Positions 3,015 to 43,949 of a stretch of DNA of 64,000 nucleotides are shown in pieces. Numbering within the stretch: position 1 is the stretch's first letter; every line of letters starts with the position of its first letter. The position numbers were made by a program, and so were the translations under genes. Below the pieces are notes generated by a model. It searched no databases and was not told the DNA's origin. It saw only the letters and a list, made by a program, of their open reading frames with translations. Origin of the DNA: Euryarchaeota archaeon UBA558 (GTDB taxonomy: Archaea; Thermoplasmatota; Poseidoniia; Poseidoniales; Thalassarchaeaceae); assembly GCA_002507175.1 (NCBI GenBank), contig DAZE01000021.1, positions 26,695 to 90,694 on the forward strand, written 5' to 3'.

Positions 3015-3020
3015 TTTTTT
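3015..3020 (+). terminator. oligo-T tract (T6) 15 nt after the stop of the BNR gene
   Basis: TTTTTT lies directly downstream of the TAA at 2998-3000. Archaeal RNA polymerase terminates at oligo-T runs. Confidence 0.35.
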
Positions 3021-3064
3021 AGGTGAACCTAAAAATTTATGTCTATTCTGACCTTCGGAGCATC

Positions 3065-4123
3065 ATGAACGCAATGAGTATTGTCTCATGGGCTGCTGCT
3101 AACAAGGCTCTTTCACTGGTATTTATGCTACTAATGAGCGGAGGCTTCTATCTCCTAATTTACGAGCCAGACTACTCTGATTGTGAACAGGATAAGAGGT
3201 GTTTAACGATAGCGTATCAAGTACAGGAAGACTACCAGGTATGGGACACCAATCCCCAGCAATTGGCGGATAAATTGAGCTCGATCATGGGCGATGATTG
3301 GGATGTTGAGATATACCCAGTTTCCGATTCTGGGCCACTAATCGAGGCAATCGACAAAGGCAATGCGGACATAGGATTTGTTGACGGTGCTGCCGCTTGG
3401 CTTGCTTGGGAGGTGTACGACTTGGACGTACTAGCCGCAGAAACAAAATCTGACGGAAGAACCTACTACAATGCAGCTGCCTGGGTCAGGGCTGATTCTG
3501 ACATGGCAGCCGCTTACTTGGATGACGATCCAAATACTGATCCATTCGCCTTGATGGAAGGTAAGAAATCATGCCACACCGGTTGGCTGAAATCGGCGGG
3601 CATGCTCATACCAATGGGGTACCTAATCGGAAATGGTTACGCCGAAGTGATAGGAGATCCGACGGAGATCGACTCGCTGGAAGCCACGGTCCACGGTTTC
3701 TTTTCGGAAGACTCCAGCATACCTAGGGGTAGTTCGCCATACTCATCCTACAAAGGAGCGATGAGATGCATGATGGAAGGGGCAGGCGATATCGCATTGA
3801 TAAAAGACACAGTTTACGATTCGTATTGCACAGGCAGCGACGCCTACGACTGGTGTCTGGATAGAGACGAAGTAGTCATGCTCGAGCCTTTCGGCCAAGC
3901 CCCAAGCCACCCAGCTCTGTATAACCCTGAGAACATGGATTTGGAGACCGTATCTCTGGTGCAAGATGCGTTGGGAGCCCTCAATGAGGATCAAGAGGGT
4001 GCTGACATTCTCTGGGATCTTTTGTATACTAAAGACATGATCCCGACTAATGCAGAGGACCACCTTGGGACTTATGGGGCGGCAGTATCGAACGTTCCGG
4101 GTATTCAAGCATACTTTGGGTGA
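3065..4123 (+). CDS. transferrin-family (single-lobe) protein, membrane/signal-anchored
   Basis: Several motifs match serotransferrin N-lobe motifs recalled from memory. [20 protein letters not shown] matches IRAIAANEADAVTLDAGLV, and TYYNAAAWV matches [30 protein letters not shown] matches [42 protein letters not shown] matches [20 protein letters not shown], and APSHPAL matches VPSHTVV. The ATG at 3065 precedes a hydrophobic anchor ([19 protein letters not shown]). The track start at 3023 is GTG. Confidence 0.7.
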   Translation: [352 protein letters not shown]

Positions 4124-4142
4124 GTCATTGATCCATAAGGCC

Positions 4143-5306
4143 ATGTCATTACTCATCTGCTCAATTCTTCTGAGTTCGATGGGGTGCCTGTCAAACGACG
4201 ACGATGGCTTCGATTGGCCGGATCCAACCAACTTTGAGTGTAGTATGGCGTTTGAGGAACTGAAATGCACAGATTACATTCAAGGGACAGAGACTCCCCA
4301 TCACTCAGTCATTAATCCGCTCAATGGGGAGGTTTGGATAGTTTATCTCAATGGATTCGTCAAGTCATGGGACGGTGAGGATCTGAACTGGGTTGCTGAC
4401 CTTAGTGAGATTGTGAATCGTTGTCACATGGAACAAGGTCTCTTAGGATTAGATTTAGAATCAGACTTTGAAAACACCAAGACCGTCTTGGTCTCATTCA
4501 TCGAAGAGGGTAGATGCGAAGGTGCCAACCAGTCTGACCTAATTCTAGCAAGTATGCAGCTTAACGAATATGGACTTCTAGATTTGGATTCACTCACTGT
4601 TCTGAAGAGAATTTCCCAACCCTATAGAAATCACAATGGGGGGCATCTCCTCAACACAGGCGACAATAAATTCCTGTGGGGAATAGGTGATGGCGGTAGT
4701 GCACACGACCCTCTGCTGAATGGCCAGAATTCATCCAATCCCCTTGGCAGCATTTACTACTTCTCATATGCGAACAACACGATCGCCCCTGTGATGGAGG
4801 ACCAAGGTGGCGACCCCTTTGTTCTTCACTATGGGGTAAGAAATCCTTGGCGATTTGACCTAGATCCTAATGGTGGTTTGTGGATAGCCGATGTTGGCCA
4901 AGCTTGTTGGGAAGAGGTTAATTTGGTAAATCTGACAGAAAGGGCAAATCTAGGTTGGTCCGACAGGGAAGGTTTCCATGAATTTGATCAAAGTGGCATC
5001 TGTGAAAATACTGACTCAGACGATATAGGAGAATATGTGGATCCAGTACTGGCCTACGCTCATGAAAACGGCAATTGCTCGATAACTGGGGGGTATTGGA
5101 TGGATTGGGGGCCAGACTCTCTGAGAGGAGGTTACCTGTATGGCGACTTCTGCTCTGGTTCCATGTGGGTAATTCGCGAGGAATCCGGCACTTGGATCGA
5201 GCATTATGTCGGTGCAAGTGGGGGAATGATTGTCGGATTCGGCCAATCTGGTGATGGTAATTTAGTGGTTTTTCACTGGATGGGCGATTCAGTGGTAATC
5301 TCATAG
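4143..5306 (+). CDS. PQQ-dependent sugar (glucose/sorbosone) dehydrogenase-like beta-propeller, putative lipoprotein
   Basis: Motifs YRNHNGGHL, GIGDGGSAHDP, GVRNPWRFDLDPNGGLWIADVGQACWEEVN, NLGWSDREG and SITGGYWM are typical of the soluble GDH family (COG2133). The ATG at 4143 gives MSLLICSILLSSMGC with a lipobox-like SMGC. The longer track start at 4050 overlaps the upstream gene. Confidence 0.8.
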   Translation: MSLLICSILLSSMGCLSNDDDGFDWPDPTNFECSMAFEELKCTDYIQGTETPHHSVINPLNGEVWIVYLNGFVKSWDGEDLNWVADLSEIVNRCHMEQGLLGLDLESDFENTKTVLVSFIEEGRCEGANQSDLILASMQLNEYGLLDLDSLTVLKRISQPYRNHNGGHLLNTGDNKFLWGIGDGGSAHDPLLNGQNSSNPLGSIYYFSYANNTIAPVMEDQGGDPFVLHYGVRNPWRFDLDPNGGLWIADVGQACWEEVNLVNLTERANLGWSDREGFHEFDQSGICENTDSDDIGEYVDPVLAYAHENGNCSITGGYWMDWGPDSLRGGYLYGDFCSGSMWVIREESGTWIEHYVGASGGMIVGFGQSGDGNLVVFHWMGDSVVIS

Positions 5307-6222: not shown

Positions 6223-6687
6223 TCACCCCCACACATGCGAGTCATCATGTCCATCTGCCTTTCTTTCGGCTTGCTCGCTCACGCTTGTCCTTCTCCGCAT
6301 GTCCTCTCGCTCAAAGAAAAGTAGCTCATCATCGTCGATATATTGGGGGCGCATGTGTGCGACTAGTTTTATCTCGACGATAACGTCTCTGGAGAACGAT
6401 CGAAAGTCGCCGTTCTCGTCTAGAATGTCGATGGAACTTCGGCCTGTGGAAATTAACATGCCCTTAATCACGTTTGGCTGATCGGTTCTAACCGATCTGG
6501 CGTCTATAACCATCTCGACTATGTCGTCTTTCCTTAGCCCAGACTTTCGCCCAATCAAAGGGCCAACATACACATCGCCGTGCATTGATAGGTCGGGAGA
6601 TCCATATGATGAGTATAGGTCAATTGCCCAGTCCGGAATTCCCCGATTCCCATTGCCATCCGTGGTAGGCATATGCCTCCCCGACAA
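6223..6687 (-). CDS. hypothetical protein (acidic C-terminus)
   Basis: 154-aa ORF tightly packed upstream of the PCD gene on the same strand. No family recognised. Confidence 0.5.
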   Translation of the reverse strand: MSGRHMPTTDGNGNRGIPDWAIDLYSSYGSPDLSMHGDVYVGPLIGRKSGLRKDDIVEMVIDARSVRTDQPNVIKGMLISTGRSSIDILDENGDFRSFSRDVIVEIKLVAHMRPQYIDDDELLFFEREDMRRRTSVSEQAERKADGHDDSHVWG

Positions 6688-6777
6688 TCTCCATAAATAA
6701 GGAAGACGGAATTGAGGTTAAAATCAACCAATGCAATTCAATACCAATGCCTATCCAGGACATGTTGGGCTGGAATC

Positions 6778-7833
6778 ATGGCTACTGCTGAATGGCGACG
6801 TATCCCAACAGTGTTGCTCCCTCAGGAAATCATAGACAAATCGTTTCGACGTGCAAGTAAAATGTCTGGCCTAGTAGATGACCCCGACAAATACCACAGA
6901 GTAAGAAAACAAATGAACAGGATGGTACAGTCATCCTCTGATACCATAGCAACCACTCTATTGGATTGGGTTGCCAGATGGCCGAGTCTGAACTCACTCT
7001 CGGAATTCGATCAGGCCTTAATCGACGCATCAGTAGGGGCTGACGATTACAGGAAGAATTTGGGCGCAATACAATGGGGGGCCGAACAAATAAGAAAAAT
7101 ATCAGGCAGGATACAGTCCGAGATGCTAAGAATCAGAAAAATAGAAGATTTTCACAGTAGTAGAAGAGCGGCATATGGTAGGTTTGCATCCGTTCTCGAC
7201 CAATTGAACCCAGAGCTTGAGTGGTTGAATAGGGCCAGAGATGTGCTTCGTGAGCTGCCCTCGATCGATGCGGGCGATCCATGCATAGTTGTCGCAGGCT
7301 CGCCCAACGTCGGAAAATCTGCTCTAATAACAGCACTATCAACCGGAGAACCAGAAGTCGCAGCCTACCCATTTACCACCAAAAGGCTACATTTGGGCCA
7401 TTTTATCCATAGAAGAAGGAAGTACCAGATGGTGGATACACCAGGTTTACTAGACCGTCCGAATAATGAGCGTAATCAGATAGAGATGCAGGCGATTGCT
7501 GCCTTGGAGAACGTGGGGGACATCGTCCTCTTCCTCATTGACCCCTCAGAGTCCGGTGGGACTCCACTTCAAGAACAAACGAGCCTATTGAGGGAGGTCA
7601 AGGATCTGATCAGTGCGAGGAAAATAATCCTAGTCCATTCGAAGTCAGATCTAGATTCGAAAGAAAGCATTCCTGGGGCTATTATGGTAAGTTCGACAAA
7701 ATCAACTGGTTTAGAGGAATTACGGGAGAAAGTTGTCCATGAGATCGCAGCCGATGCGATAGTTGACCCACTCCAGCTTCCCGAGGGTTGGCACAGAGAA
7801 GACACAGAGATCAAAGAACACTCACTTGACTAA
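6778..7833 (+). CDS. NOG1-family GTP-binding protein (archaeal ribosome-biogenesis GTPase)
   Basis: Has G1 GSPNVGKSALI, G3 DTPGLLDRP and G4 SKSD motifs plus an N-terminal helical NOG1-like region. The ATG at 6778 is preferred over the TTG at 6712. Confidence 0.8.
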   Translation: MATAEWRRIPTVLLPQEIIDKSFRRASKMSGLVDDPDKYHRVRKQMNRMVQSSSDTIATTLLDWVARWPSLNSLSEFDQALIDASVGADDYRKNLGAIQWGAEQIRKISGRIQSEMLRIRKIEDFHSSRRAAYGRFASVLDQLNPELEWLNRARDVLRELPSIDAGDPCIVVAGSPNVGKSALITALSTGEPEVAAYPFTTKRLHLGHFIHRRRKYQMVDTPGLLDRPNNERNQIEMQAIAALENVGDIVLFLIDPSESGGTPLQEQTSLLREVKDLISARKIILVHSKSDLDSKESIPGAIMVSSTKSTGLEELREKVVHEIAADAIVDPLQLPEGWHREDTEIKEHSLD

Positions 7834-7941
7834 CCAATTATGGCCACAAACCTTGCAGTACAGATAGAATCCCCCGTAAGATCTCGGTAGACCCTCTACC
7901 TCCACGGGAGTATTGCAATTGGCACATATCTGGGATTCCAT
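7822..7941 (-). CDS. candidate 39-aa zinc-ribbon small protein (not in the ORF track)
   Basis: My manual minus-strand translation reads MESQICANCNTPVEVEGLPRSYGGFYLYCKVCGHNWLVK, with CxxC...CxxC spacing. It fills an otherwise empty 150-nt gap and overlaps the NOG1 3' end by 12 nt. Confidence 0.3.
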   Translation of the reverse strand: MESQICANCNTPVEVEGLPRSYGGFYLYCKVCGHNWLVK

Positions 7942-13135: not shown

Positions 13136-15817
13136 TCACTCATCGTTGGTTGATCCACGGGATCTCATTCCTATGATGACCAGTCCGATGGCCACCACAT
13201 AGAGGCCGAAAGCAACGAAGTCAGCCATGTCATCGGTGGAGCCCTCGGCCCCGGTCCCAAAGTCAGTCCAGAAGAACATGCCCTGATTATCGATGACTGC
13301 AGAGACGAAACTCTCTGCGTCGTCGTCCCCGATCTCACTTGACGTGTGGATCTCAAACACTGGGTGTGTGTCTCCGGCGAACAATGGATCCATGAATCCT
13401 GGGCCTCTAGTGTCCAGATGGAAGGTTGATTTGCTCTTTCCGTACATCGCTATTCCTGTGATCTCCTCTACGTAGATGTCTACGTGGGATTCGAAGTATA
13501 CAGGCAATGCCCCTGGCATGACGTCTACGACTGAGCCAGAGCCAATCAGCTTGGCCTGTATCTGGTTCGAAGCCGGATCGAGCATCACTTGGTGGTGAAC
13601 CATCGGTATGCCCTTGAATTCCAATTCTCCGACGACCTCTGTGTTCGCAAGTGCGTAGCCGACCAAGTTGACTACTTGAGGGGATTGAGGATCAGCAGCG
13701 ATGCCGCCTATCGCCCCAGTCTGATCAGTGAAATCGTTCCCCACGTGTGATGATAGAAGCCCATAGGTCAGGTCCTCTGATGCTTGCGATCTCCATGGCA
13801 TGTCGGGCCCCATCGCATAAACATCTCCTGTTTCAGCGTCGAGGTAGCCCTCAGCGACTCGGAGCCCAGGAGTTCCTCCATTTACAGAGGTCGTCTCCTC
13901 ATAGACGCTGTAGTCTCCTGTTGAGAGGCCATCGCTACCGTAGTATGTCGCGTTGGTCTCAAGGCTGACCCAACTGTTCTCAGCCCCATAGAGGCCCGCT
14001 AGAACAGGATCAGACCAACCATATAGCCAGTTGTCCATCGATTGAGTGGTAAGCGGGCCAGATCCGTATTGGAAGTTCAGCAGCAGTCCGACGACTTGGT
14101 CGAACATCAAATCCTTGACCCACGACCTTAACAAGGAAGCATCCAGCTCAGATACGCCGTACATATTTGCGACGTGTGCATCGTCCCAAACGGTCTGCAC
14201 ACCGCCTGTGGCGGGTCCCTCGGCCGTCATTGGGAAGGTCATTCCCGACAATTCTCCGTACATGAACATCGTAGCCACGCTGGAGTCTGTAAGCGCATAT
14301 GGCCCGTCATAGAGGATCTCGTCTACTTTTTCAATAGGCAGATTCGTACCCTCTCCCGCAGCCATGTCCCTATTGAGGCCAACTGCTATGTTTCCTCCGG
14401 CCAAAGGCTCTTCGCCCCCGAAGGCCATCTTCCACCAGGTGTCGGCGTTGATTGTCCCAGCACCATTCGGGTTGAGGATCCTCAAGGGGAACTCGGAGTT
14501 CCCTAGTTGCCAGTCCCCGGGCCAATAGGCTACATCGCTCAGAGTAAGAATCCCAGGGAAATTGTATTCTTCGATCATGTCCATGTAGGCAGGGGGGCTT
14601 GCGGACAAGGGCAGCAGCATTAGAACAACTCCGTAAAGTGGAATGCCACTGAGATCTTGCTCAGCGAGGATGCCAGCAGGGTATCCCGTATCTTCGTTGA
14701 TTCCGTAGAGGAAATACTCTAAATCGTCCTCTGGGAAGTCATACCCGGTTAGGACTTCAACTCGGTGGCCGTTATCTTCTGCGACATCGGGGTGTATCCC
14801 TGCCCCATATTGCGACATTTTCAGTGCGGCTCCGGCATAGACTGCCCAATCCATCAAATTCAGTTCCACAGGGTCCGTGGAACCATATCCTAGCAAATCT
14901 GCCCTCAAGGGGGTTATTTCCGGGCTTGGAGCTCCCCATGCGGCGACCATCCATGGCCCATAGTCGCAGGTCAGTGCCATGCAGACCCCGCTGGTGGGAT
15001 CCACTGCATCATGCAGTATCGACTGAGCGGAAGCTGTGAAATCAGGCGACATCATATCGGCGCCGAGTGCACCTCTTGTGACGTCGTCTAATGTTGAATT
15101 CCATGCTGAGAAAAAGCCATCCATGACCATCGCGTCGGACATCGAGGCAACGGTAATTGCATCCAAGGTTCCGCCTGTCTGGGCCTGCACCATTGCGTTG
15201 GTGGACTGGACGATTCCGTCTATGTCCTGAGCTGTTTCCATGCTTGGTGCCAAGTACATCATGTCGTATGTCACCATGTTCTTTGAAAAACCAGCCTTGG
15301 CAAACTGCTCTCCATATTCGATTCCAGTGGATATTCCCGCCATTAACTGGGTATTCCATAGGATGTTTTGGTTGGTGATCAGTGTGTCTCCTGGCATTGA
15401 TTGGTGTGGTACTCCATCGGAATCTTCCCACACGCAATCAGAGCAGTGTTCGAACACGTCATAGGACGAGTAGGTCATGGTTCCATTATCTGAGTCCCAG
15501 CCGATGAGGTCATTGTGGACAGTGACATTGTAGATGAAAGGCCCCATGTGATCATATATCGGGTCTTCTCCATCCAAGGCTTCTGTGGGATTTGTAATTG
15601 AATAGGCAAAATATGTCCTCTGCGAGACAGACTCTTGCCAGTCCTCGTCCCCTGAGTAATCCTCCTCGTCGTCATAGGACGATTGTACCGTGTCCCTCAC
15701 GGTATCCAATGTCGCATCTGACACGTATGGTGCGAATGCGAATGCGTTCAATCCAATGAGGATAATTCCGACAATTAGGTAGGTCGTAGAGCGGTTGCTA
15801 GACATGCTATCGTGCAA
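13136..15817 (-). CDS. CD36/LIMP-2 (scavenger receptor class B) family-like protein with a large insertion; N- and C-terminal TM anchors
   Basis: 893 aa with the CD36-type hairpin topology: N-terminal TM YLIVGIILIGLNAFAF and C-terminal TM FVAFGLYVVAIGLVIIG. Residues 69-123, YFAYSITNPTEALDGEDPIYDHMGPFIYNV...DSDNGTMTYSSYDVFE, match LIMP-2 [29 protein letters not shown]...GDNGTTIS...AYVFE. Residues 594-606, MDNWLYGWSDPVL, match ELLWGY(K/R)D(E/P)xL. KGIP at aa 735 and PVYFESH...YVEEITGI match GIPVYRF, PVYISLPHF and DIEPITG. Confidence 0.65.
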   Translation of the reverse strand: MHDSMSSNRSTTYLIVGIILIGLNAFAFAPYVSDATLDTVRDTVQSSYDDEEDYSGDEDWQESVSQRTYFAYSITNPTEALDGEDPIYDHMGPFIYNVTVHNDLIGWDSDNGTMTYSSYDVFEHCSDCVWEDSDGVPHQSMPGDTLITNQNILWNTQLMAGISTGIEYGEQFAKAGFSKNMVTYDMMYLAPSMETAQDIDGIVQSTNAMVQAQTGGTLDAITVASMSDAMVMDGFFSAWNSTLDDVTRGALGADMMSPDFTASAQSILHDAVDPTSGVCMALTCDYGPWMVAAWGAPSPEITPLRADLLGYGSTDPVELNLMDWAVYAGAALKMSQYGAGIHPDVAEDNGHRVEVLTGYDFPEDDLEYFLYGINEDTGYPAGILAEQDLSGIPLYGVVLMLLPLSASPPAYMDMIEEYNFPGILTLSDVAYWPGDWQLGNSEFPLRILNPNGAGTINADTWWKMAFGGEEPLAGGNIAVGLNRDMAAGEGTNLPIEKVDEILYDGPYALTDSSVATMFMYGELSGMTFPMTAEGPATGGVQTVWDDAHVANMYGVSELDASLLRSWVKDLMFDQVVGLLLNFQYGSGPLTTQSMDNWLYGWSDPVLAGLYGAENSWVSLETNATYYGSDGLSTGDYSVYEETTSVNGGTPGLRVAEGYLDAETGDVYAMGPDMPWRSQASEDLTYGLLSSHVGNDFTDQTGAIGGIAADPQSPQVVNLVGYALANTEVVGELEFKGIPMVHHQVMLDPASNQIQAKLIGSGSVVDVMPGALPVYFESHVDIYVEEITGIAMYGKSKSTFHLDTRGPGFMDPLFAGDTHPVFEIHTSSEIGDDDAESFVSAVIDNQGMFFWTDFGTGAEGSTDDMADFVAFGLYVVAIGLVIIGMRSRGSTNDE

Positions 15818-25483: not shown

Positions 25484-28400
25484 ATGAAAATGATAGACAA
25501 AAACGGCAACACCGATGTGGCCCAATTGAGAGGCATACTCGGCGGCCCAATAATGCTGGCAGCCGCCCTGTTTGTGTTCTTGATAGCTGCACAGGTCTCG
25601 GGACTGAATGGATGGACAGATGAAATAGGCCTCCTTGCTCTTCCTGCCGTGGCCGCCCTAGGCGCGGCTCTCGGGAGGATCAGCTCGGAGCACCCCTCTG
25701 CGAGCAACCTAAACAGTGCCATAGCCCCGAGCGCTTTTGTCCTGATCTCGATAATAACATCCTTCTTCGCCCCCGCTGCGATCTGCATGACCTTCCTTAT
25801 TGCCTCCCTCATCACACACCTTTTGGTGTCAAAGGGTCGTCCAGTGGAGGCCAACTTCCTCGTTGGGGGTTTGATTGGAATACAGTTTGCAATGATCTTT
25901 GCCTTGACCTCTGAGATACCAGACGACTCGCAAACAAATGCAACCCGTGCATACCTGGGGGCCAGATTCTCGGCCATGATGGCTGTCATGTTGATGGGCT
26001 CGCTATATGTTGCACTAATATTGTCAAAGACGATAGACAGGGCAAGTGAGAAGGGACTTCTCTCGGAACTTCCCTTCGACGTGGCCAGCAAGTCCACCCA
26101 CATCGCTGGTGGCGCTACCATGTCCTCACTCATGATACCCTTGATTTGGTTGTCTTCCATTGACGATCCCCAAATATACGAAGACGGAGCCTTCCTCGGC
26201 CCCTTCTGGGGGCTGTTTTCAGCAGCAATTGTACTGATCGTCGCGATGTTTAGGTCCGAGAGGTGGAACGTCTTGGCAGCGGTATTCTCGCTCAACTGGA
26301 TAATTTACACCCTCGGAAGACTGAATGATATAGGCGTTTCAGGTTTCCCAAATGCCTTGACGGAAGACGGATCGTATCCAATGATCCTGTGGCTCCTCAT
26401 CACATTCTGGTCTAATGTCGGTGTCATATTACTGGCATCCAGAGGTCATTTGGGAGCCATGGCTCCCCTCAGGGAACCATCTCCCTTGAGGAAATGGTGG
26501 CAAAGACATAGCTACGTCATTCTGGTGGGTATGGCCCTTGCGGCCGGATTCATCGTGAGAGTGGTTTGGAACGTGATTCCTGCCATGAACGCATCAGTAA
26601 TAGGAGAGTGGGACATGTCAGGCGGATCTGATCCGTGGTACATGAAGCGGATCATAGACTATGTCGCATACGAAAGGGCGCATTTCGTTTTTGATGCGGA
26701 CCGCAATTACCCCGTGGGAGGATTGAACCCTCGGCCGCCACTATTCTCCTGGTCACTTGCCCTTGGCGGTATTTTCCTTTCCTGGATTGCCGACATGCCC
26801 TTGAGTGAAGCAGTTTGGTGGTCAGTGGAAGCTCAACCTGCCGTTTGGGGCGCATTGATTGTACTCCCTGTAGCAGCAACGGCCAAGAGGTTCCATTCCC
26901 CACTGGCGGGAATTGCCGCTGCTTGGCTCATCGCATTCATGCCAGGCCATATCACACACTCTACATTCGGCCTCGCAGACCACGATTCATTTGCCATGTT
27001 CTTCCTAACACTTGGCTTCTACTGGTGGGTCAGGTCAATGATGGGCATCAAACAAGAGAGGCTCTTCTCGAGAACGTCTTGGAATCCACTGTACATCCTC
27101 GCAGGAATCAGGCTAATGTGGCGCAATAATCGCATAATCATGATACACTCGACATTGGCAGGAGTTTCTTTTGCAATTGCCGGTCTTGCATGGAAAGGCT
27201 ACGTCTATGCCCCGGGAATCCTCTTCCTTGGGTATTCAGGCATCGTTTTCCTGAACCTATTCAGAGGTCGGGATGCCTTACCTATCACCGCAACAATGCT
27301 TCAGATGCTGTTAGCTGCAATCCTAATTCCGTTGCCCTTCTACATTTGGCCAGGGATGAACCTACTGACGAACCCAAGTGGCATGGCTCCGCTACTTTAC
27401 ATGCTGGGATTCACAGTCGGCCTAGGCTACGTTATTTCTGCCTCCCGGGACAAGCCATGGCTCATGGTCTTCACGACCACAGCAATTTTGTCCCTATCTG
27501 TACTGGGGGGTCTGTTCATCCTTCAGACACTTGACTTGTACGCTGGATGGGACATATTGGTCACTGGTGGGTTCTACTTCTCCAAAAACAAGGTTTTCTC
27601 AACAATAGGTGAAGCCCAGGCCCCCGACAGAGGAATCTTGTTTGCCTCATTCGGCCCCATAGTCACTATTGCCGCCATCGGATACGGCCTCATGTTGATA
27701 TGGAGGGGGGGAAGGAAGGAGAATCCAGCCTCATTCACGCTTGGAACATGGATCGTGGTTGCATCTTACATGTCATGGACTGCAGGTCGCTTCATATTCA
27801 ATGCAGGACCTCCAATGGCCGTAGTTGGCGGCGTAGGCCTGACCGCAATGTGGGCGTATGCGAACCCTACAGAATTTGTGAAACTCTGGAAGAAAACCGG
27901 TGTCGGATCACCAAGGGCCAGATTCAACAGCACTTTCTCTGCGAGCAGGTCCAGACCAGGGGTTCCAGCGGCTTTGATGGTCCTCCTAATCGTATTTTCA
28001 CAACACGCCACCTACGGTATCGATTCAGGAATACCCAGGGGAGATTCATCAGCGGGAGATGTTGATCAAGCAATTCAAGGGATTATGCCCGACGTCCTCC
28101 GATACGAAGTTCTAGGTTTTTCTGTATTGAATTCCAACCAATATTCTCCAGACGAGCGGTGCTCCAGTGGCTGCTGGTATCTGGGAACTTTCGGCCCCGG
28201 GTTCAACGGGGGAGGATGGAACATGGCATATGAGTGGCTATCTGAGCAGGACTCAGAATCAACTTTTACCGAACGACCAGCTTTCCTCTCTTGGTGGGAT
28301 TATGGGTTCCAAGCCTTGTCTCATGGACAACACCCCACCGTCGCCGACAATTTCCAAACCGGGATACCCATATCAGGAAACATCCTGCTTAGTTCAGGCC

Positions 28401-31400
28401 AGGAGGATGTACTTTCCCTGATGGCAATGAACGCATTAAGAATGGGCGGTGTCTCAGATCCCGACAATAGGGCCGTTCTAGAACAATACTTTGAGGAGAA
28501 CCAGATCCGGGAGTTGGAACGAATTCACAGTATGTCCTCTGAAGACGTTGAGGCCCGTGCGCTTGCCTTGATTCATGAGGATGATGAGGTACAACTAGTC
28601 AAGGGAGCATTCCTGGCGAAATCTGGTTTGCCATCTAAGTCTGGCTGGTACGTCATTGATGGAGGGGAGATTGTTCAAGACCGCTTTGACGACCTCGGTG
28701 GGGCGATGAAGCTTTTCAACACAACTAGATCATCATCAAGCTACTTCTCAGAGAGCCCCACCCACTATATAATCGGTGGCTATAGATACACAGCAGACCT
28801 CATAGAAGACTACAACGACTTATCCACGGGGATCCACAGGGAAAATGCCAAATTAGCAGTTGGCAGAGCATTCATAACTCATGTTTTGGATCTTGATCAA
28901 ATCGTAGGCCTTGTCTCTGATCTAAGTGAGATACAACATGATGTACAAACGTTTGAAGGAAGACTAGGGGAAACGGCCCAAAGGAACACTGACGTCAGAT
29001 ATTTCGCAATCGATGACAGACTTTACCCATTGGGCGGATTGTTCTATGAGGGCTATAACTATCATGGTGGCCAAACCACAGGTATTTTCTACGCTCCAAC
29101 TACACTGGCGGGCCTTGATCCTGAAGACTACATCTCCAGCAGTTATCTCACCAGAAGGGGGGATGGCCCCATAATCCCACGAACAGCTGGCGAATATGAA
29201 CAGGAATATCTGGATGACATAGTCCGACAACAATCAGGCGCTATAACAGACCAGAGCCAGATAATTAGCCTTGAAGACATCGATTACATCCAGCAACCTG
29301 AATTTTTCGAAACATTCCTGGCCCGTACATACGTTGGTTATGGCACGACATCTCTAGGATTGGATCCGGATAATACTGGTCAACCCGGGCCCACATGGGC
29401 AAAATCCGGAACGCCTACAACGCCCCTTAGGAACGCTTACGCTCTCCCTGGCGCGATGATGAATCACTTCGTTCTCGCAAATTATCATGACGATGGGTCT
29501 GATTACGTGGATTCAGACTCCGATGGTACCCCGGACATATACAATTGGAGCAACCCGCGCGAAGATCCAAGTGGCTACTACAACGCAATAGGAACAGCTA
29601 ACTCCAATGTCAAGATACTCAAGTATTACAGTGGAGCTACGCTCAACGGGCAAGTGACTTTAGAAACCGGTGAACCTGTTCCCAATGCAAAGATTCTGAT
29701 CGAGAGGGACGCCTTCAGCTATGAAGAAGGTACTGACACAGACCCGAGGACTTACTGGATACCCATCGGCTCAGAAACAACAGACGATGAAGGTCACTTT
29801 TCTTCCACTATTCCCTCTGGGAAGATACGGATTAGTGCCTTCTATGGAGCAGTGGATGAATCAGGAGCAAGAGCCCAAATAGAATCTGGCGCGTTTGACA
29901 TGCTTTCCGATATAACCAGAGAACAGCAAGAGGGGGAAGATCGCGTTATCAACCCCATTTCAGCCATTTTGGGTGGAGTAGCTGGAACCACATACCTCGG
30001 AGCCGAGGTTTTAGTGGTATCAGGGGAGGAAGGGCACAGCAATGGGGCCTCAGTACTGACAGTCGACGTCAGTGTACCTGCAGTCGCATCGACGGGGCAG
30101 GTCCAATGGACTGGTGACGAGTCGTTTATCGGCGACCCTGTAAAGAATGCAACGGTAATTCTTACACCATCAGACCCAGATGCCACCCATCATGGATATG
30201 CAGTTTCCACATCCTCAGGCTCAATAGAGGGCGAGGGCCTCTACTTCACAGGCGAGGGAAGCGCGATCTTCGATGGCTCAGGCCAATTTGACTCATCGAG
30301 CCCGGCCAAGGCAGAGGAATTCACAGGAAGGCTGAGTCAGACAATAAGGAACAACCAATCGGTGATCGGTACCGGAACTTTTGTCGGAAATGGAATACTA
30401 ACAGGCACACTCGCTGATGGTTCCGTGCCATCAGCCTGTGATGCCAACGACACCTTGCCGGACAATCTGGAAGTCTGCACGTCTCAGAACGGAGAGATAG
30501 TGGTCTCTGGCTCAGTCAATGCAACGGGAAGATTCGTATCAGCAGGCCAATCGGAGTTCATTCGAGACTACGAGAATGCGTCTTTCACCGCCGCAGGCAG
30601 ATTCATTGTAGACGAGGGCAACTCCGGAACCATAACGGGGAATGGAGTATTCCAAGGGGACGGTGTATTTAGTGGCCTGATGGTCAGGGAGGGCACATTC
30701 CACATCTCTGATGCCATACCTGGGGAATATAGCGTCCGGATCGTGATGAATACCGGCCAAGAAATTGAGGTTGATGAGAAATTCTCAATCCTCAGAACCC
30801 CCTCAGCAGAAACAAGGCTCGTACAAGTGGAGGGCCTCTCTGTTAACGCCCTATTGACGAAGGAGGATGGATCCCTACCCACGGGTAATGTGATACTCAC
30901 CGACACGGAATTGCAAGGTTATACCGCGACACAACCCTGTTCTGATGGACTAACATCCCCATGCTCAGTACCCATTGGGGAAGGCGGAACTATCTCAATC
31001 GGGCCAATACCATCCAGATCACACACGATATCCTATGACTCTGATTTAGATGGCTTCTACGATCTGGTGGCAAGTGTGTTGCCAGAGGATGCTACTTCAG
31101 GATCCATAGAACTGGATCTCACGATCCCATTGACTGCGGACCTTGAAATCAGTCTTTTGTCTGAGTCTGGTGCAACTGTTCCCGACCTAGACCTGACGGT
31201 CAGAAGTGCTTCAGGACCTGGGATCTTCGACATGAACTACGACTCCGAAACGGAGACCTACAAAGCGGAGCTAGTTCCAGGTGAATACCAACTTAACTAC
31301 ACACAGGGAGACTCCCAGATATGGGAGTTGATCACCCTCGATGAGGATCTGTCCATGACCGCCCAGTTCAGGACGAGCTCACTTCTCTCTGGAACTGTTT

Positions 31401-34400
31401 TCACATCAGACGATGACGGTGACCCCGAAGCGGACGACTTCGTCCAATTTGCCGAAGTTGTGGCCAGATGGTCTGGCTTTGAGATATCTACAGTCGCAGA
31501 TGATGAGGGCAATTTCGAGTTCACGCTTCCAGTGGGGGAGAGTGTCACACTCACATCTACCGTCGGACTTGGCAATCTTGTCGATGGTTTGGTAGTGTTC
31601 ACATCCGAGGAAAACGACCACATCAACCTAGTCACAAGAAAAGGAGTTGTCTACGAGGGCATAGTTTCAGTGAATCGAGGCAACTACCTGTACGACAACT
31701 CCATATTGGGCTGGGAGCCACTTACAGTATTAGCAACCAACGAATCGTCTGAAGTCACTTGGACATCTGAGGTAACCGAAAATGGTAACTTCGAGATAGC
31801 CCTCCCAATAGGGGAATGGGAGATTTCATTGCTGGACAGTGAGTTTGAACACGCCACAGTAGCAATGGAACCAGACGCTACGATCGAATTAACCATATTC
31901 CCAGAGAACAGCACACTGAATTTATTTGCATTCATCGACTCATCCAGAGACGGTAATGTCGCCAACGGCACAGGAGTCATAGCTGATTTCAGAGTTGTAC
32001 CCTTGGATCAGAGTGGAATTCAAGAGAATTTCACTACTTCAGCCACTGGAACCGCCAGTGTGCAACTCGAGCCAGGGAATTATCTGATCGAAACCAGCAT
32101 ACTCAACCCAGATCAGACCCTTCACGGGACTAGGATCCTTACAGGGTCCACCAACATTCAGATTCCACTGAAGGGAACCATTCTGCAAAGAGATATTGGA
32201 TTCGACCCAGAGGGCGTCGTAAATATTACATTCACCGATCAACTACTCGCCCCCATTGCTGATTTAGAGATTAAATTCAGAAATGTTGACAGAGAACCTG
32301 TAATCGTCACTTCACTCACAACAGATGACGATGGAAACATCCTCGCATTATTGCCTGAGGGTAGAACGATAATCGAGATTGATGGCTTTGAGCCTGGCGA
32401 CCAGACTGTATTGGGTGCAAGATATGCAATTGATGTGATCGCAGGTGATCAATCATCGCCGATATCGATCGAATTAACGGAGATGGCAACTTTGAATCTT
32501 ACAATTTTGGACTCTGGAACATCCGATGGAATCCCGGATCAGAAAATTATCCTACAATCTCTAGATGGTTTGGGAACAATCAATATGCCCCCGACAAATG
32601 AAACAGGATTCACATCGACATTACTCGTACCCGGTGATTGGAGTGTAAGCCATGACGAGGAGACCAGTGGAGTTAGAGTCCTGATTCAAGAAACTCACAT
32701 AGACCAAATTCTAGCAGGTGAATATCGAGATATTCTACTCGACGCTCAAAAGGAAGTCATTCTATCTGGTAAGGTTTTCTGGGATTTTGACAAAGACGAT
32801 CAGGCTGATGTCGCGGAGGGCGTTTCCAATGCTACTGTTACAATTGACGACGGTCAAACCACTATTCAACTGGAAACCGATGAAACAGGATCATACTCCT
32901 CATTGGTCCCGGCGAATGCCTCTCTAAGCGTCACTGCCTCCAAGGACGGATTTACCACCACGGAGGAGAACTCTCTAATCAATGGAGAGCCAATTGATCT
33001 CGACATCGAGCTAACTGCAGGTACAGTTTCTGCCTCAGGCACTGTGACCTACCTAGGCCAATCGATAGATCCTCTGTGGTCCGATGATGTCGAAATAATC
33101 CTGGTGCCCAGAGAGGGCTTTGCTATGCCTCAAGTAACCGCAGAGAAGAATGGAGACGGCGAATGGGACGGTACTTGGTCTGTTGACCTAGAACCCGGGA
33201 GATATGTGCTTCAAGTGCGTGACACCACCAGAAACTTAGTGGCCTTCTCCCAAATATTCGCTGATCTAGTGAACGGTGGACAAGCGGACGTGGATCTAGT
33301 CCCCGGAGGATGGCTCCTAATGAATGGCTCATGGCTTGACTATGAGGGAAGCCTGCACTCAATCTCATCAGAGGACATGGATTTAGAAGGATCAGACATT
33401 CTGAATGATGAACTAACACTTCTGATGGAGTCTGGGCCGTCACTAGACTGGAGACTCGCGGTACCCGATGACGGGGAACTTAGAATCCTCTTACCTTCAG
33501 GACCAGTTACGATTTCCGGGGACTTCGACGTAGCTCAACAGGACAGGACAATGTCATATGAGGCAGGTCAGTCCATCAGTGTCCCATCCTCAACGATTTT
33601 AGACGCATTTGAGACTGCACCATTTGACCTGAGGTTCAACAGAATATCAAACAGCGATATCTCAGTAGCCTTGGTTTCCACTTCATCCGCCACCGTCGAC
33701 GATGACGGCATTCTGTACGCCAATAGCGACGGAGAAGGCGGCTACGAACCCATGCTCGTAGAGATCAAAGTTGACTATGAGGGTCATGAGACATCCGATG
33801 TTTTCAATTTGAGGGCCACAGTCCCTGGCACTGATGGAGCTGATTGGACTGTTCTGTTTGATAATGGATCTGGGGAATATTCAGACGCACCAACCCTTTC
33901 GATGTCCATCGAAGACGATCAAAAGACTGTCCAAGTCCAAATAACACCCCCCAACTCTACGGTGGCACGTCATTTCTCAAATGGAAGAGCTGTGACAATC
34001 CAGGTATTCTCGGACAACGGCGTTAACGAAGACGTTGAAGTGAAAGTCAACGTCCCAAAAATAACCGGTTGGAGTCTATCTGAGGCCCCCGAAGACGTTT
34101 ATGGTGTCAGACCCGGTTCTCAGGAGACTGTCCAACTCATCTTCCAAAACGATGGCAACTCAGATGAGGTATACTCAGTCTCATTCGATGACGGTGCATT
34201 GCCTCCAGGTTGGACAAGAACTGGAGCCCAATCCGTGACTGTTGGGGCATTTGAGAGTCAAGCGTTCTCGGTCATCATAGGTGCCCCGGAAAACGCCACT
34301 GACGAACCATACACACTCACCATGTTCGTAATAGGCGATGACCAAACGGAATACGAGCCCGTAGCAATTGACGTGTCCGCCCAATATGCGGTACTGTCCA

Positions 34401-34878: not shown

Positions 34879-36111
34879 ATGCCCAAGGACGGCATCGAGT
34901 TAATGCCCGAGCCTGAGGACAGGGCTATCCTAACCGCGGTTGACAAGGGGGCCGTGGGATACACGGGGGAAGATTACGGCCTTTCTGACAAAGAAGCGAG
35001 AGACCTGAGGCGGCCATTGTATGGCATGTCACCATTCGTATGGCCCTATGGAGCAGTTGGAGGAGCTGCCAGCATAGTCGTGATGATGCTTTTGTGGCCG
35101 ATGATTCAGCCACTAATCACGCCATACCTTCCAGCTTCCGAATGGGCCTATGATTCATCTGGTGTACGGCTCCTCAGCGAGGAAGGTCTCGATGGTAGTG
35201 GGATCAAAGTCTGCGTAGTCGATACTGGTATAGACCCAGCACATCCTGATTTTACAAACATGAATTTAGTTGGATTCAGGGACTTTTATGCCTTTAATCA
35301 TGAGGAGGTTAGGGATGTAAGCCAATCCCACCATGGAACTTCCATGGCAGGGCTACTCATTGCGAATGGCTCTGGACCCTTGAAAGGAATGGCTCCGAAG
35401 GTGGCACTCAGCGTGGCCGTAGGATTGGGGCCTGAGGGAACCACTGGAAACAGCGTCAGGGTCGCTGATGCAATTCAATGGTGTAGGGTTTCTCAGAGAT
35501 CGGATATAATCAGCCTATCGCTAGGGGGGCCATTCGAAGCCTCATCCCAACTAGCCTCTAGGTCTGTCTCAGGTGCGGTTCAAGATGCCTTGGACAATGG
35601 GATCTTTGTCGTAGCGGCGGCGGGAAATGCGGGTCCGAACAACATTGATGTCTCCACACCCGCAAATGTTGAGGGCGTCATAAGTGTCGGTGCATATGAT
35701 CGGTTTCTCACGCCCTGGTCAAACAGTTCGATCGGTTCATACCAAGATCCTTACAAGGAATTGGATAGAGTCTGGCCAAATCAGAAACCCGAGATACTCG
35801 CCCCTGGCTACTATATTCTCTCCACAGTTTCCAGTCAGAAATCCCCTCCTTATGCATATTCTACAGGTACAAGCGATGCAGCAATCTTCGTCACAGCGAC
35901 GTTGGCCTTGATATTACAGGATCTTACTGAAAAGGGTCTCACAGACCTTACGGTTGGGGGGGATAATCGTATATTTCATGTCAAGAAGGCCCTCGCAGAG
36001 AGTGCCAAACCAGTAGATAACCAGATCGGACACGACACTCGGTCGGGATATGGCATTCTGGATGCCGTGGCATGGCGTGACGCAGTGGAAGCCTCTGCTG
36101 ACAATTGGTAG
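34879..36111 (+). CDS. membrane-anchored subtilisin-like serine protease (peptidase S8)
   Basis: The catalytic triad contexts are VCVVDTGID (Asp), SHHGTSMAGL (His) and STGTSDAAIFVTA (Ser). An N-terminal TM (AASIVVMMLLWPMIQPLI) precedes the catalytic domain. Confidence 0.85.
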   Translation: MPKDGIELMPEPEDRAILTAVDKGAVGYTGEDYGLSDKEARDLRRPLYGMSPFVWPYGAVGGAASIVVMMLLWPMIQPLITPYLPASEWAYDSSGVRLLSEEGLDGSGIKVCVVDTGIDPAHPDFTNMNLVGFRDFYAFNHEEVRDVSQSHHGTSMAGLLIANGSGPLKGMAPKVALSVAVGLGPEGTTGNSVRVADAIQWCRVSQRSDIISLSLGGPFEASSQLASRSVSGAVQDALDNGIFVVAAAGNAGPNNIDVSTPANVEGVISVGAYDRFLTPWSNSSIGSYQDPYKELDRVWPNQKPEILAPGYYILSTVSSQKSPPYAYSTGTSDAAIFVTATLALILQDLTEKGLTDLTVGGDNRIFHVKKALAESAKPVDNQIGHDTRSGYGILDAVAWRDAVEASADNW

Positions 36112-36178
36112 CACCCATATTCCGCCTAGGGTTATATCTATTGACGGCTCCAGTGCTATCATGATCGACCGGCCCGTG

Positions 36179-43931: not shown

Positions 43932-43949
43932 CGCGAAGCGGGGACCGGC

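Follow-up and report, generated by a model that had tools for sequence, protein, structure and literature searches.

A membrane-anchored, single-lobe transferrin relative of Poseidoniales archaea and the candidate iron-repressor site upstream of its gene

In the FbpABC systems of Neisseria and Haemophilus, FbpA holds Fe3+ through tyrosine ligands and a synergistic anion (its ligand set is His, Glu, Tyr and Tyr, with phosphate) and delivers it to an ABC importer. For the ABC importers of archaea, membrane-anchored binding proteins are the norm. Iron capture at the cell surface has been described in marine plankton, where the phytotransferrin ISIP2a/FEA1 is membrane-anchored, induced by iron starvation and dependent on carbonate for its capture of Fe(III) (PMC7676907), and in Dunaliella, whose surface-bound plasma-membrane transferrins (TTf) serve iron uptake and comprise a mix of intact and degraded lobes (PMC10372677). 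Transferrin itself is thought to descend from the PhnD/PtxB/AioX group of binding proteins (McQuaid 2018, as summarized in PMC7676907). For the Marine Group II archaea, phosphonate transport is listed among the core traits (PMC6336850). The literature that we searched contained nothing on iron acquisition by these archaea and nothing relevant on an archaeal or prokaryotic transferrin or an archaeal FEA1; the tree of McQuaid et al. (2018) may include such sequences.

Here we describe a transferrin-type gene in a 64-kb stretch of Poseidoniales DNA, the whole of which we refer to as the window. If the function proposed below is correct, FbpA would be a functional analog of its product, although FbpA belongs to a separate binding-protein lineage with a different ligand set, and no match to the FbpA lineage was present among the Pfam and NCBIfam results at E ≤ 10. 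The phytotransferrins have no sequence kinship to the window protein, which was not matched by the FEA1 model (PF07692), but an FEA1-related lipoprotein, encoded by a separate regulon gene that is absent from the window, is co-regulated with the transferrin-like family in Poseidoniales. The Dunaliella transferrins differ in being eukaryotic and multi-lobed, and they were not among the closest sequence relatives recovered. Together, an anchored transferrin relative and a conserved regulatory site of an iron-type regulon upstream of its gene suggest that these archaea, the most abundant ones in surface waters, scavenge iron in the manner of transferrin.

The gene product and its transferrin-type sites

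The gene lies on the plus strand at positions 3065..4123 (stop codon included) and encodes 352 aa from the ATG at 3065. The mechanically called ORF, 3023..4123, begins with a GTG; we rejected this start, and consider the ATG at 3065 the better one, because GTG 3023 falls within a conserved upstream palindrome, homologs begin at the ATG, and a 98%-identical database protein (P0001) shares that Met. An ORF on the opposite strand (3743..4270) that overlaps the gene was discarded as it lacked support.

At its N-terminal end the protein has a membrane helix, after which comes a single lobe of the periplasmic-binding-protein type; the two lobes of transferrins are not found, as there is only one in the 352 aa. 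The predicted signal-anchor helix, K14-Y33 (3104..3163, plus strand), is based on an AlphaFold2 helix at residues 14-32 and on hydropathy, the top 19-residue window of the protein beginning at residue 15. This helix shows neither a lipobox nor an obvious cleavage site; paralogs of the single-lobe protein bear lipoboxes instead (e.g., AGCLG). The ectodomain is highly acidic, with 58 Asp plus Glu residues vs. 16 Lys plus Arg. The sequence and the anchor helix thus bear out the preliminary description of this DNA, in which the product was regarded as a membrane-anchored, single-lobe homolog of transferrin lobes in a marine archaeon.

The likeness of the protein to transferrin lobes is far above chance. 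In searches of PDB sequences, its best E-value was 1.4e-22 as a single sequence and 2.7e-40 as a family profile, and every one of the best 60 matches was a transferrin-family chain, lactoferrins included. The Pfam Transferrin model (PF00405) was matched with 61.4 bits (gathering score 20.3), the match being split in two stretches, and was also matched by 34/34 orthologs. BLASTP against Trichoplax melanotransferrin gave 2e-15. Among 1.84e9 representatives, 317 clusters were recovered at E ≤ 1e-3; these included ichthyosporean and animal transferrins, and canonical PhnD was absent from them.

HMMER alignments to bovine and equine lactoferrin placed D107, Y135, Y229 and H282 on lactoferrin D60, Y92, Y192 and H253, respectively, which we take to be the lactoferrin iron ligands in that numbering. 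Based on alignment and conservation, the putative Fe ligands, all encoded on the plus strand, are therefore Asp107 (in GFVDGAAAW; codon 3383..3385; transferrin D63), Tyr135 (3467..3469; Y95), Tyr229 (3749..3751; Y188) and His282 (in APSHPAL; 3908..3910; H249). In the same alignments T172/K176/A178/G179 matched lactoferrin T117/R121/A123/G124, and the anion-site segment T172-G-W-L-K176-S-A178-G179 (3578..3601, plus strand) would correspond to T120/R124/A126/G127 of transferrin. Five of these residues (D107, T172, G179, Y229 and H282) are invariant in 34 orthologs and the other three (Y135, K176, A178) reach 90% conservation or more, against a mean column identity of 64% across the same orthologs. 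The full D-Y-T-K/G-A-G-Y-H signature was present in 74/74 single-lobe ORFs of related loci.

All of the sequence motifs quoted in the preliminary description were found and the codon coordinates were verified. Its proposal of a complete Asp-Tyr-Tyr-His set alignable with the transferrin ligands is supported by both the HMMER alignments and the conservation in the 34 orthologs, with the refinement that, while the "TYY" site was correctly equated with Y95, the exact residue is the second Tyr of the Y134/Y135 pair. It was also right that the anion site retains Thr and has Lys in place of Arg124. This Lys is not peculiar to the archaeal protein, however, as it is common in ichthyosporean and animal lobes, occurring in those of ichthyosporeans, Trichoplax, Ciona, skate and axolotl.

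Cys170 (in SCHTG) and Cys235 (in MRC), which delimit positions 3572..3769 on the plus strand, are invariant and aligned with the cysteines of lactoferrin SCHTG and FKC; they presumably form a disulfide equivalent to C118-C194 of transferrin. A second invariant pair is C255/C264. The archaeal protein has in common with eukaryotic transferrin lobes the predicted two-domain type II binding-protein fold, the ligands and the anion site at homologous positions, and the C118-C194-equivalent Cys pair. It differs from eukaryotic transferrins in its single lobe, its N-terminal transmembrane anchor, its acidic ectodomain and in having only six Cys and none of the Cys-rich insertions, with large gaps in the BLAST alignments; the archaeal family also occurs in a prokaryotic operon and ABC context, without receptor or endocytosis.

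Two AlphaFold2 models, with and without the anchor, were confident (pLDDT 87 and 89), and for both the top Foldseek match was the human transferrin N-lobe (E-values of 7e-16 and 1e-14; TM 0.57-0.65). PtxB and AioX were within one order of magnitude of transferrin in the ranking. As these two are nearly as close as transferrin, fold alone cannot decide between them, and we did not retain the fold comparison as a discriminator even though transferrin ranked first in both models.

The upstream palindrome and the gene neighborhood

Upstream of the gene is the palindrome TTTTTAGGTgaACCTAAAAA (3016..3035), with a core of TTAGG-N4-CCTAA at 3019-3032. It is unique in the 64 kb of the window, even if one or two mismatches are allowed. 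By contrast, 150 exact sites were found in 1.32 Mb of related loci, 145 of them no more than 120 nt upstream of transferrin-like, FEA1 or PhnC-like genes, and in 43 loci the center of the palindrome is at a constant 38.5-39.5 nt before the transferrin start. For the remaining five exact sites, four of which were examined, the assignments were a flavodoxin, an M28-ZIP fusion and an unrecognized PhnC downstream (three sites); one pair among the remaining sites had no assigned ORF. In one locus the M28-ZIP fusion, with its operator, is directly upstream of the transferrin-like gene. The outer pentamers of the palindrome are identical to those of the DtxR consensus TTAGGTTAGCCTAACCTAA (PMC7762939), but its spacing is unlike that of bacterial DtxR boxes. 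We regard TTTTTAGGTgaACCTAAAAA as a candidate operator for an iron repressor of the DtxR family.

Abutting the palindrome, about 25 nt before the ATG, is a TATA-like box, AAATTTATG (3033..3041, plus strand), a putative promoter element whose position suggests an mRNA that is leaderless or nearly so. Across 61 unique upstream regions the consensus reads TTTAGG..AcCCTAAAttTTAt. Taken over the related loci, TTAGG-N4-CCTAA marks a conserved regulon of transferrin-like, FEA1-type, PhnC/PhnE-type, flavodoxin and ZIP genes, and we are fairly sure that the transferrin-type gene is regulated by iron. The connection to iron drawn in the preliminary description thereby gains independent support, from the iron-type regulon and from the FEA1, flavodoxin and DtxR-family neighbors in relatives.

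The next gene in the window (4143..5306, plus strand) begins 19 nt past the transferrin stop codon in the same orientation and is probably co-transcribed with the transferrin-type gene. Its product, a lipoprotein with SSMGC as lipobox, belongs to the soluble quinoprotein glucose/sorbosone dehydrogenase family (Pfam GSDH, 68 bits) and has a distant match to sGDH (E = 8e-5). This dehydrogenase-like gene is immediately 3′ of the single-lobe gene in 54/61 loci with enough flank, the window included.

The neighborhoods of the gene in relatives are richer, with genes for an ABC ATPase, a permease, the FEA1-related lipoprotein, a flavodoxin, a DtxR-family protein, an HmuY-like protein and two-lobed paralogs. 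Of 29 related loci with 8 kb of flanking sequence, 19 had PhnE-like genes near the single-lobe gene, and in several loci the single-lobe gene and a PhnC-like gene are divergent with one common operator. In loci of the Poseidoniaceae type, a classical binding-protein/ATPase/permease operon is led by a two-lobed version whose two sites are both intact. In those of the Thalassarchaeaceae type, the ABC-adjacent paralog also has two lobes, but its ligand positions are degraded, and the single-lobe protein may therefore not be the cognate partner of that importer. Within the 64-kb window, Pfam searches of ORFs of at least 140 aa and tblastn detected no ABC, FEA1, flavodoxin, DtxR or ZIP genes, and in the nine closest loci no ABC, FEA1 or DtxR genes were found out to 10 kb.

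Proposed function and alternative explanations

On balance we favor, from sequence and gene context, the proposal that the protein is a surface-anchored binder of Fe(III) and an anion, repressed by iron, that serves high-affinity uptake of iron and probably feeds an ABC importer. Taken separately, binding of Fe(III) by the 352-aa protein is likely, while the chances that its iron is handed to an ABC importer are about even, the lack of ABC genes in the window and around its nine closest loci weighing against this step. When iron is sufficient, a DtxR-family repressor would sit on the palindrome and the transferrin-dehydrogenase pair would be silent, its transcription presumably being blocked by a repressor bound right beside the TATA-like box. 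Under iron scarcity the protein would be made and would be extracytoplasmic, tethered to the membrane by its uncleaved N-terminal helix. Its two domains would close on one Fe3+ via Asp107, Tyr135, Tyr229 and His282, while Thr172/Lys176 and the helix N-terminus at Ala178-Gly179 would accommodate the synergistic anion, either carbonate or possibly phosphate. The iron would then pass to a PhnC/PhnE-type ABC importer, encoded beside the gene in most relatives and not in the window, and the dehydrogenase-like lipoprotein may aid its release, for example by reduction. Of the "iron-scavenging receptor" suggested in the preliminary description, we thus keep the iron scavenging, whereas a binding component of ABC-type uptake is likelier than a receptor.

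Iron binding of the transferrin type might instead operate without an ABC importer, which we think unlikely. The protein would then work with the dehydrogenase-like lipoprotein, reductive release supplying Fe(II) to a carrier, of the ZIP type or another, or it would buffer or concentrate iron at the surface as in FEA1/ISIP2a and the Dunaliella transferrins. The fact that the gene has its constant partner in the dehydrogenase-like gene, rather than in the less regular PhnE-like genes, fits such an arrangement, as do the operator-bearing M28-ZIP fusion upstream of the gene in one locus and the finding that the ABC-adjacent paralog in these genomes is a separate, degraded protein. However, we found here no electron-transfer tie of the dehydrogenase family to iron uptake and the association with ZIP is limited to a single locus, whereas the divergent PhnC-like neighbors under one operator, and the usual membrane anchoring of binding proteins for archaeal importers, argue for ABC-type uptake.

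A different ligand altogether is proposed by the reading that the protein is an ordinary PhnD-type binder of phosphonate, phosphite, phosphate or another oxyanion, and that its likeness to transferrin reflects shared ancestry only; we regard this as quite improbable. Phosphonate-bd (PF12974) is the top Pfam model, with 66.3 bits against a threshold of 27 and coverage of profile positions 10-240 of 242, and it outscores Transferrin by 5 bits, as it likewise does in 34/34 orthologs. The preliminary description had held that a best HMM hit to a generic periplasmic binding protein would speak against transferrin, and taken literally the scores (66.3 vs. 61.4 bits) are of that kind. We dropped this ranking as a refutation since it is non-discriminating: the curated NCBIfam PhnD models fail well short of their cut-offs (TIGR01098, 35.5 vs. 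112.05; TIGR03431, 22.5 vs. 261.1), BLASTP found no similarity to Escherichia coli PhnD (E = 3.1), hhalign to PhnD gave a probability of 40% over 80 columns, and the searches of the PDB and of the 1.84e9 representatives returned transferrins, with no PhnD or PtxB chains in the best 60 PDB sequence matches.

The protein does resemble PhnD, PtxB and AioX in its fold class, with PtxB and AioX near the top of the fold matches, in its end-to-end match to PF12974, in an anion pocket at a helix N-terminus, and in the PhnE/PhnC-like partners found in relatives, whose permease passes the NCBIfam PhnE equivalog cut-off (227.5 vs. 216.7) and whose ATPase has PhnC as its best match. The source annotations also favor a PhnD-type protein ([quoted passage not shown]), as does the place of phosphonate transport among the core Marine Group II traits. 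It differs from these proteins, however, in its full set of transferrin metal ligands, invariant or (Tyr135) nearly so, which would be superfluous for a phosphonate site, and in its iron-related neighborhood and regulon. The annotated neighborhoods, with 8-10 kb of flank, hold iron genes and no C-P lyase or phosphonatase families, and the operator is DtxR-like, not Pho-like.

The view that the protein, controlled by a regulator of the DtxR/MntR type, binds another metal (Mn, Ti(IV), Al or Zn, for instance) draws on the fact that the DtxR family includes Mn sensors, on the many hard metal ions that transferrin sites take (the fold matches include PDB entries containing Ti, Cr, Bi, Yb and Ru) and on the ZIP transporter in the regulon at one locus. 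Nevertheless, the genes that share the regulon (the FEA1 family, flavodoxin and the HmuY-like gene) are markers specific to iron, and the combination of Asp-Tyr-Tyr-His with an anion site is canonical for Fe(III), making another metal very improbable. A recent transfer from a eukaryote, or a eukaryotic contaminant in the assembly, is scarcely credible: although the closest relatives outside prokaryotes are ichthyosporean and animal transferrins and neighbor-joining (NJ) bootstrap values were 50% for a eukaryote clade and 0-16% for archaeal monophyly, the gene has an archaeal-type promoter and a lineage-wide operator, is flanked by archaeal housekeeping genes (aIF2-beta, aRF1 and CDP-archaeol synthase) in a window that is collinear with a Poseidoniales MAG contig at 94% nucleotide identity, is carried by both Poseidoniales families at 50-98% identity, and was never nested within a eukaryotic subgroup in the NJ tree.

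Origin of the family and implications

The preliminary description had regarded true transferrin-family proteins as overwhelmingly eukaryotic, but the archaeal protein is no oddity: species-representative genomes yielded 392 stretches matching the family, Poseidoniales accounting for nearly all of them, archaeal binding proteins with the D-Y-Y-H set also include members from Heimdallarchaeota, and NCBI already gives members of the family a generic name, "PhnD/SsuA/transferrin family substrate-binding protein." The nearest eukaryotic relatives found were the ichthyosporean transferrins of Amoebidium (P0138), Ichthyophonus (P0147) and Chromosphaera (P0124), which have in common with it the SCHTG-x2-KSAGM-x-P-x-G motif, with Lys, and are membrane-tethered. 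They differ in having 2-5 lobes, a signal peptide, a C-terminal anchor and a eukaryotic gene context, at about 35% identity.

A tentative scenario, which we put forward as possible though doubtful, is that the Fe(III)/anion site of transferrin was born in archaeal PhnD-derived ABC binding proteins, of which those of Poseidoniales would be survivors, that holozoan transferrins descend from such a protein, and that lobe duplication occurred independently in archaea and eukaryotes. Prokaryotic proteins that have the full transferrin ligand set and are still tied to a PhnC/PhnE-type importer are the intermediate expected for an origin of transferrin among phosphonate-binding proteins. The family also offers a further, independent example of lobes being duplicated and decaying.

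Iron limits growth in the sunlit ocean, and no archaea there are more abundant than those of Marine Group II. For these organisms, the transferrin-like family, its FEA1-type partner and the operator would provide the outline of a complete, testable iron regulon, and genes currently read as phosphonate transport (PMC6336850) would be re-labeled. Should the archaeal, PhnD-derived origin be true, the "phosphonate transporter" of Marine Group II would serve as their principal system for taking up iron, one that may depend on carbonate. Were carbonate used at the site, iron uptake by these archaea would be sensitive to acidification of the ocean, as with transferrin and diatom phytotransferrin (PMC7676907).

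Transferrin homology and metal ligands

The transferrin-type (Tf) gene lies in a forward-strand ORF of 3023–4123 with a GTG start, within which an in-frame ATG at 3065 gives a single-lobe protein of 352 aa. This ATG is the likely start, because the database protein P0001 (98% identical) begins there and because GTG 3023, which we disfavor, falls within a conserved upstream palindrome. A 175-aa ORF on the reverse strand (3743–4270), antisense to the 3' portion of Tf and to the beginning of the gene that follows it, is without support as a real gene and was taken as spurious. All motifs quoted in the preliminary description were found in the window protein, and their codon positions were checked. 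The membrane anchoring it had proposed was also borne out, as the AlphaFold2 model has one hydrophobic N-terminal helix (residues 14–32) which, with no lipobox at the N-terminus, is a signal anchor. In the paralogs of this protein, lipoprotein signals take the anchor's place. The ectodomain is very acidic.

The resemblance to transferrins first noted from the sequence was confirmed by matches in the PDB, at E = 1.4e-22 with the protein alone as query and 2.7e-40 with a profile of 34 sequences; every one of the best 60 sequences is a lactoferrin, ovotransferrin, serotransferrin, melanotransferrin or transferrin-like inhibitor of carbonic anhydrase. The two lobes of Trichoplax melanotransferrin aligned through all ligands (2e-15 and 2e-14). 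In Pfam, two models were above threshold, for the window protein and for all 34 orthologs: Transferrin was matched as the preliminary description had expected (61.4 bits), but the top rank went to Phosphonate-bd (66.3 bits), an outcome which, taken literally, speaks against its assignment. As grounds for rejection, this ranking does not discriminate. The PhnD-type identity that the rank would imply was countered by curated NCBIfam PhnD-type models, which the protein failed by a wide margin (35.5 vs. 112 and 22.5 vs. 261), by BLASTP, which detected no similarity to E. coli PhnD (E = 3.1), and by hhalign profile-to-sequence comparison (40% probability, 80 columns only). It was likewise countered by phmmer run exhaustively over 1.84 billion cluster representatives, where the 317 clusters at E ≤ 1e-3 comprised archaeal relatives and eukaryotic transferrins and included no canonical PhnD. 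Two AlphaFold2 models, built with and without the anchor (pLDDT 87.2 and 89.1, respectively), both had the human transferrin N-lobe as best fold match (E = 7e-16 and 1e-14; TM 0.57–0.65); since PtxB and AioX were close behind, the fold alone is no decider. Based on the failed PhnD models and the phmmer, BLASTP and PDB results, the window protein belongs with the transferrins within the PhnD/transferrin superfamily, as part of a prokaryotic branch that comes under the broad phosphonate model of Pfam as well. Databases already apply a generic superfamily name to it.

The proposed Asp/Tyr/Tyr/His ligands proved alignable, HMMER placing D107, Y135, Y229 and H282 on D60, Y92, Y192 and H253 of bovine and equine lactoferrin, and T172/K176/A178/G179 on T117/R121/A123/G124, in lactoferrin numbering. 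Among the 34 orthologs (mean column identity 64%), D107, T172, G179, Y229 and H282 are invariant, as are four cysteines (C170, C235, C255, and C264), and conservation is 90% or higher at Y135, K176 and A178. The full ligand/anion set is present in 74 of 74 single-lobe ORFs from related loci, and D-Y-T-K-A-G-Y-H was read in 159 of the 202 lobes extracted from all retrieved proteins. The replacement of Arg124 by Lys, to which attention had been drawn, is present (K176) but is no peculiarity, being seen too in ichthyosporean, Trichoplax, Ciona, amphioxus, skate and axolotl lobes.

Candidate operator, regulon and gene neighborhood

A perfect palindrome, TTTTTAGGTgaACCTAAAAA, lies 33 nt 5' of the Tf ATG, with a TATA-like TTTTAT immediately 3' of it, about 25 nt before the ATG. 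Its core, TTAGG-N4-CCTAA, has this single match in the 64 kb, even with one mismatch allowed. The 1.32 Mb of non-redundant related loci hold 150 exact core sites, and 145 of these are ≤120 nt upstream of Tf-like, FEA1 (algal FEA1/phytotransferrin family) or PhnC-like genes, a zone making up 2% of the sequence (binomial P ~1e-239, which overstates independence because the loci are related). Sequences flanking the sites have diverged among loci, and the operator position is fixed, at ~39 nt before Tf starts; FEA1 is preceded by two copies ~43 nt apart (at ~9 and ~51 nt), and PhnC-like genes by sites at 8–31 nt. Three of the five leftover sites precede a flavodoxin gene (L067, 5159–5755, reverse strand), an M28-peptidase/ZIP-transporter fusion and a PhnC gene outside the initial tally. 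The fusion (L021, 7535–9853, forward strand) has 773 aa, with an M28-peptidase-like ectodomain and a ZIP metal transporter, and lies directly upstream of a single-lobe Tf gene. The operator has the same outer pentamers as the DtxR consensus, TTAGGTTAGCCTAACCTAA (PMC7762939), but differs from DtxR boxes in spacing.

Nineteen nt past the Tf stop is a lipoprotein gene of the soluble quinoprotein glucose/sorbosone dehydrogenase family (4143–5306, forward strand). Of the 61 loci that extend far enough 3' of the single-lobe gene, 54 show this pairing, so that the dehydrogenase-like lipoprotein is its constant companion on that side. In the window and its nine closest loci this pair alone is kept of the cluster genes, and no importer gene was found in the window by tblastn or by Pfam scans of its ORFs of at least 140 aa. 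Neighborhoods of other relatives encode a PhnC-like ATPase, a permease above the PhnE equivalog cut-off, two-lobed paralogs of ~700 aa, a flavodoxin, a binding protein and permease of Peripla_BP_2/FecCD type, and an FEA1-related lipoprotein (NCBIfam NF038033, 372 bits vs. a cut-off of 250). This lipoprotein, from the family that includes algal FEA1 and the phytotransferrin of diatoms, occurs widely across Poseidoniales (e.g., L006 10358–11614; also L001, L019–L022, L027–L035, and others). Of 29 single-lobe loci with 8 kb of sequence on both sides, 19 include a PhnE-like gene and 15 include FEA1. One genome has an HmuY-like gene and a DtxR-family repressor gene that is transcribed divergently from the two-lobed gene. 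In L009, a DtxR-family gene (7214–7873; Fe_dep_repress plus an FeoA domain) and a flavodoxin gene (6355–6855) lie on either side of the two-lobed Tf gene.

In the Poseidoniaceae-type layout, a two-lobed protein with both sites intact comes first in a binding-protein/ATPase/permease operon (L075, L078, L081, L084, L089; P0121). In the Thalassarchaeaceae-type layout the single-lobe gene is intact and paired with the dehydrogenase gene, and the ABC genes adjoin a two-lobed paralog whose ligand positions are degraded. These paralogs, lipoproteins of ~700 aa (L006 11768–13870; P0122, P0123, P0126, P0128, P0133) encoded next to PhnC/PhnE-like genes, have N-lobes reading, e.g., S-Y-T-D-V-G-F-S and wholly diverged C-lobes with an insert bearing a CYDIS-H motif. 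Elsewhere in the window, an 892-aa protein (13136–15817, reverse strand) matches the CD36 scavenger-receptor family of eukaryotes over a short stretch (residues 65–122; PF01130, 37 bits), and a subtilase gene lies amid three very large forward-strand ORFs (25484–34858, 36050–40408, and 43878–49694; 3124, 1452, and 1938 aa).

A putative route of iron capture

We propose that a DtxR-family repressor with Fe2+ would sit on the operator and stop initiation, and that when iron is scarce the Tf protein would be displayed at the cell surface. There Fe3+ would be captured by the four ligands and a synergistic anion in a predicted Thr/Lys/helix-N-terminus pocket, and passed on to a PhnC/PhnE-type ABC importer. 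Such a working mode would resemble those of FbpA and phytotransferrin; the likeness to transferrin is one of homology. The hand-off is the weakest step, because the importer genes are absent from the window, the importer's immediate neighbor in Thalassarchaeaceae-type genomes is the degraded two-lobed paralog, and what regularly accompanies the single-lobe gene is the gene for the dehydrogenase-like lipoprotein, a protein that may instead aid iron release by reduction. Iron capture that dispenses with an ABC importer, through a dehydrogenase and ZIP route or with the protein as a surface concentrator, is unlikely. We consider it improbable that this is a true phosphonate or oxyanion binding protein, for which the support is confined to the ranking in Pfam, the permease of PhnE type and current annotations, and against which stand the conservation of the metal ligands and a genomic context related to iron. 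That it binds another metal is more doubtful still. Recent eukaryotic transfer or contamination is scarcely credible; the window encodes archaeal markers (aIF2-beta, aRF1, a NOG1-type GTPase, and CDP-archaeol synthase) and is collinear with a contig of "Euryarchaeota archaeon UBA487" at 94% nucleotide identity.

Distribution and descent of the transferrin lobes

Relatives are encoded in 392 stretches from a pattern scan of one genome per species, and the best 80 of these are all from Poseidoniales-type MAGs, except two bacteria-labeled contigs with archaeal gene order; the Tf family is common in Poseidoniales and no rarity. The two exceptions (L013 and L043, labeled Pedosphaera sp. and Rhodobacteraceae bacterium) have the Poseidoniales order Tf, dehydrogenase, PhnE, PhnC, two-lobed Tf, FEA1, and are probably mis-binned. 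Since nearer relatives are labeled Thalassarchaeaceae and remoter ones Poseidoniaceae, the window is probably Marine Group IIb.

In a neighbor-joining tree built from 68 lobes, with E. coli PhnD as the root, a small group branches first, made up of Heimdallarchaeota and other archaeal proteins in which D-Y-Y-H is kept but the anion loop is of the PhnD-like form T-x-x-G-[AS]-G; Thermoplasmatota/Poseidoniales sequences and a eukaryotic clade come next. Bootstrap values (eukaryotic clade 50%, archaeal monophyly 0–16%) are too weak to give a direction of descent. The basal archaeal proteins, also located in binding-protein/ATPase/permease operons (e.g., P0212, L092 6001–6984, Heimdallarchaeota; P0281, L091 6001–7062, on a 3.0-Mb archaeal contig), may be PhnD-to-transferrin intermediates. 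In P0121, the two-lobed protein of Poseidoniales with intact sites, one lobe is sister to the other in this tree (66% bootstrap), which suggests an archaeal lobe duplication separate from the eukaryotic one. Giant multi-lobe transferrins were also retrieved, namely P0146 (Branchiostoma, 2661 aa), P0150 (2619 aa) and the ichthyosporean P0124 (Chromosphaera perkinsii, 1894 aa), which has five lobes, all with the signature intact.

Our literature search found no paper on archaeal transferrin-type proteins, their regulon or Poseidoniales iron uptake. The derivation of transferrin from phosphonate-binding proteins is a known proposal, as recounted in PMC7676907, and sequences of this kind may already figure in the paper that first made it. 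In one survey of genomes, phosphonate transport is counted among the core traits of Marine Group II (PMC6336850), an entry that probably derives from the genes described here.
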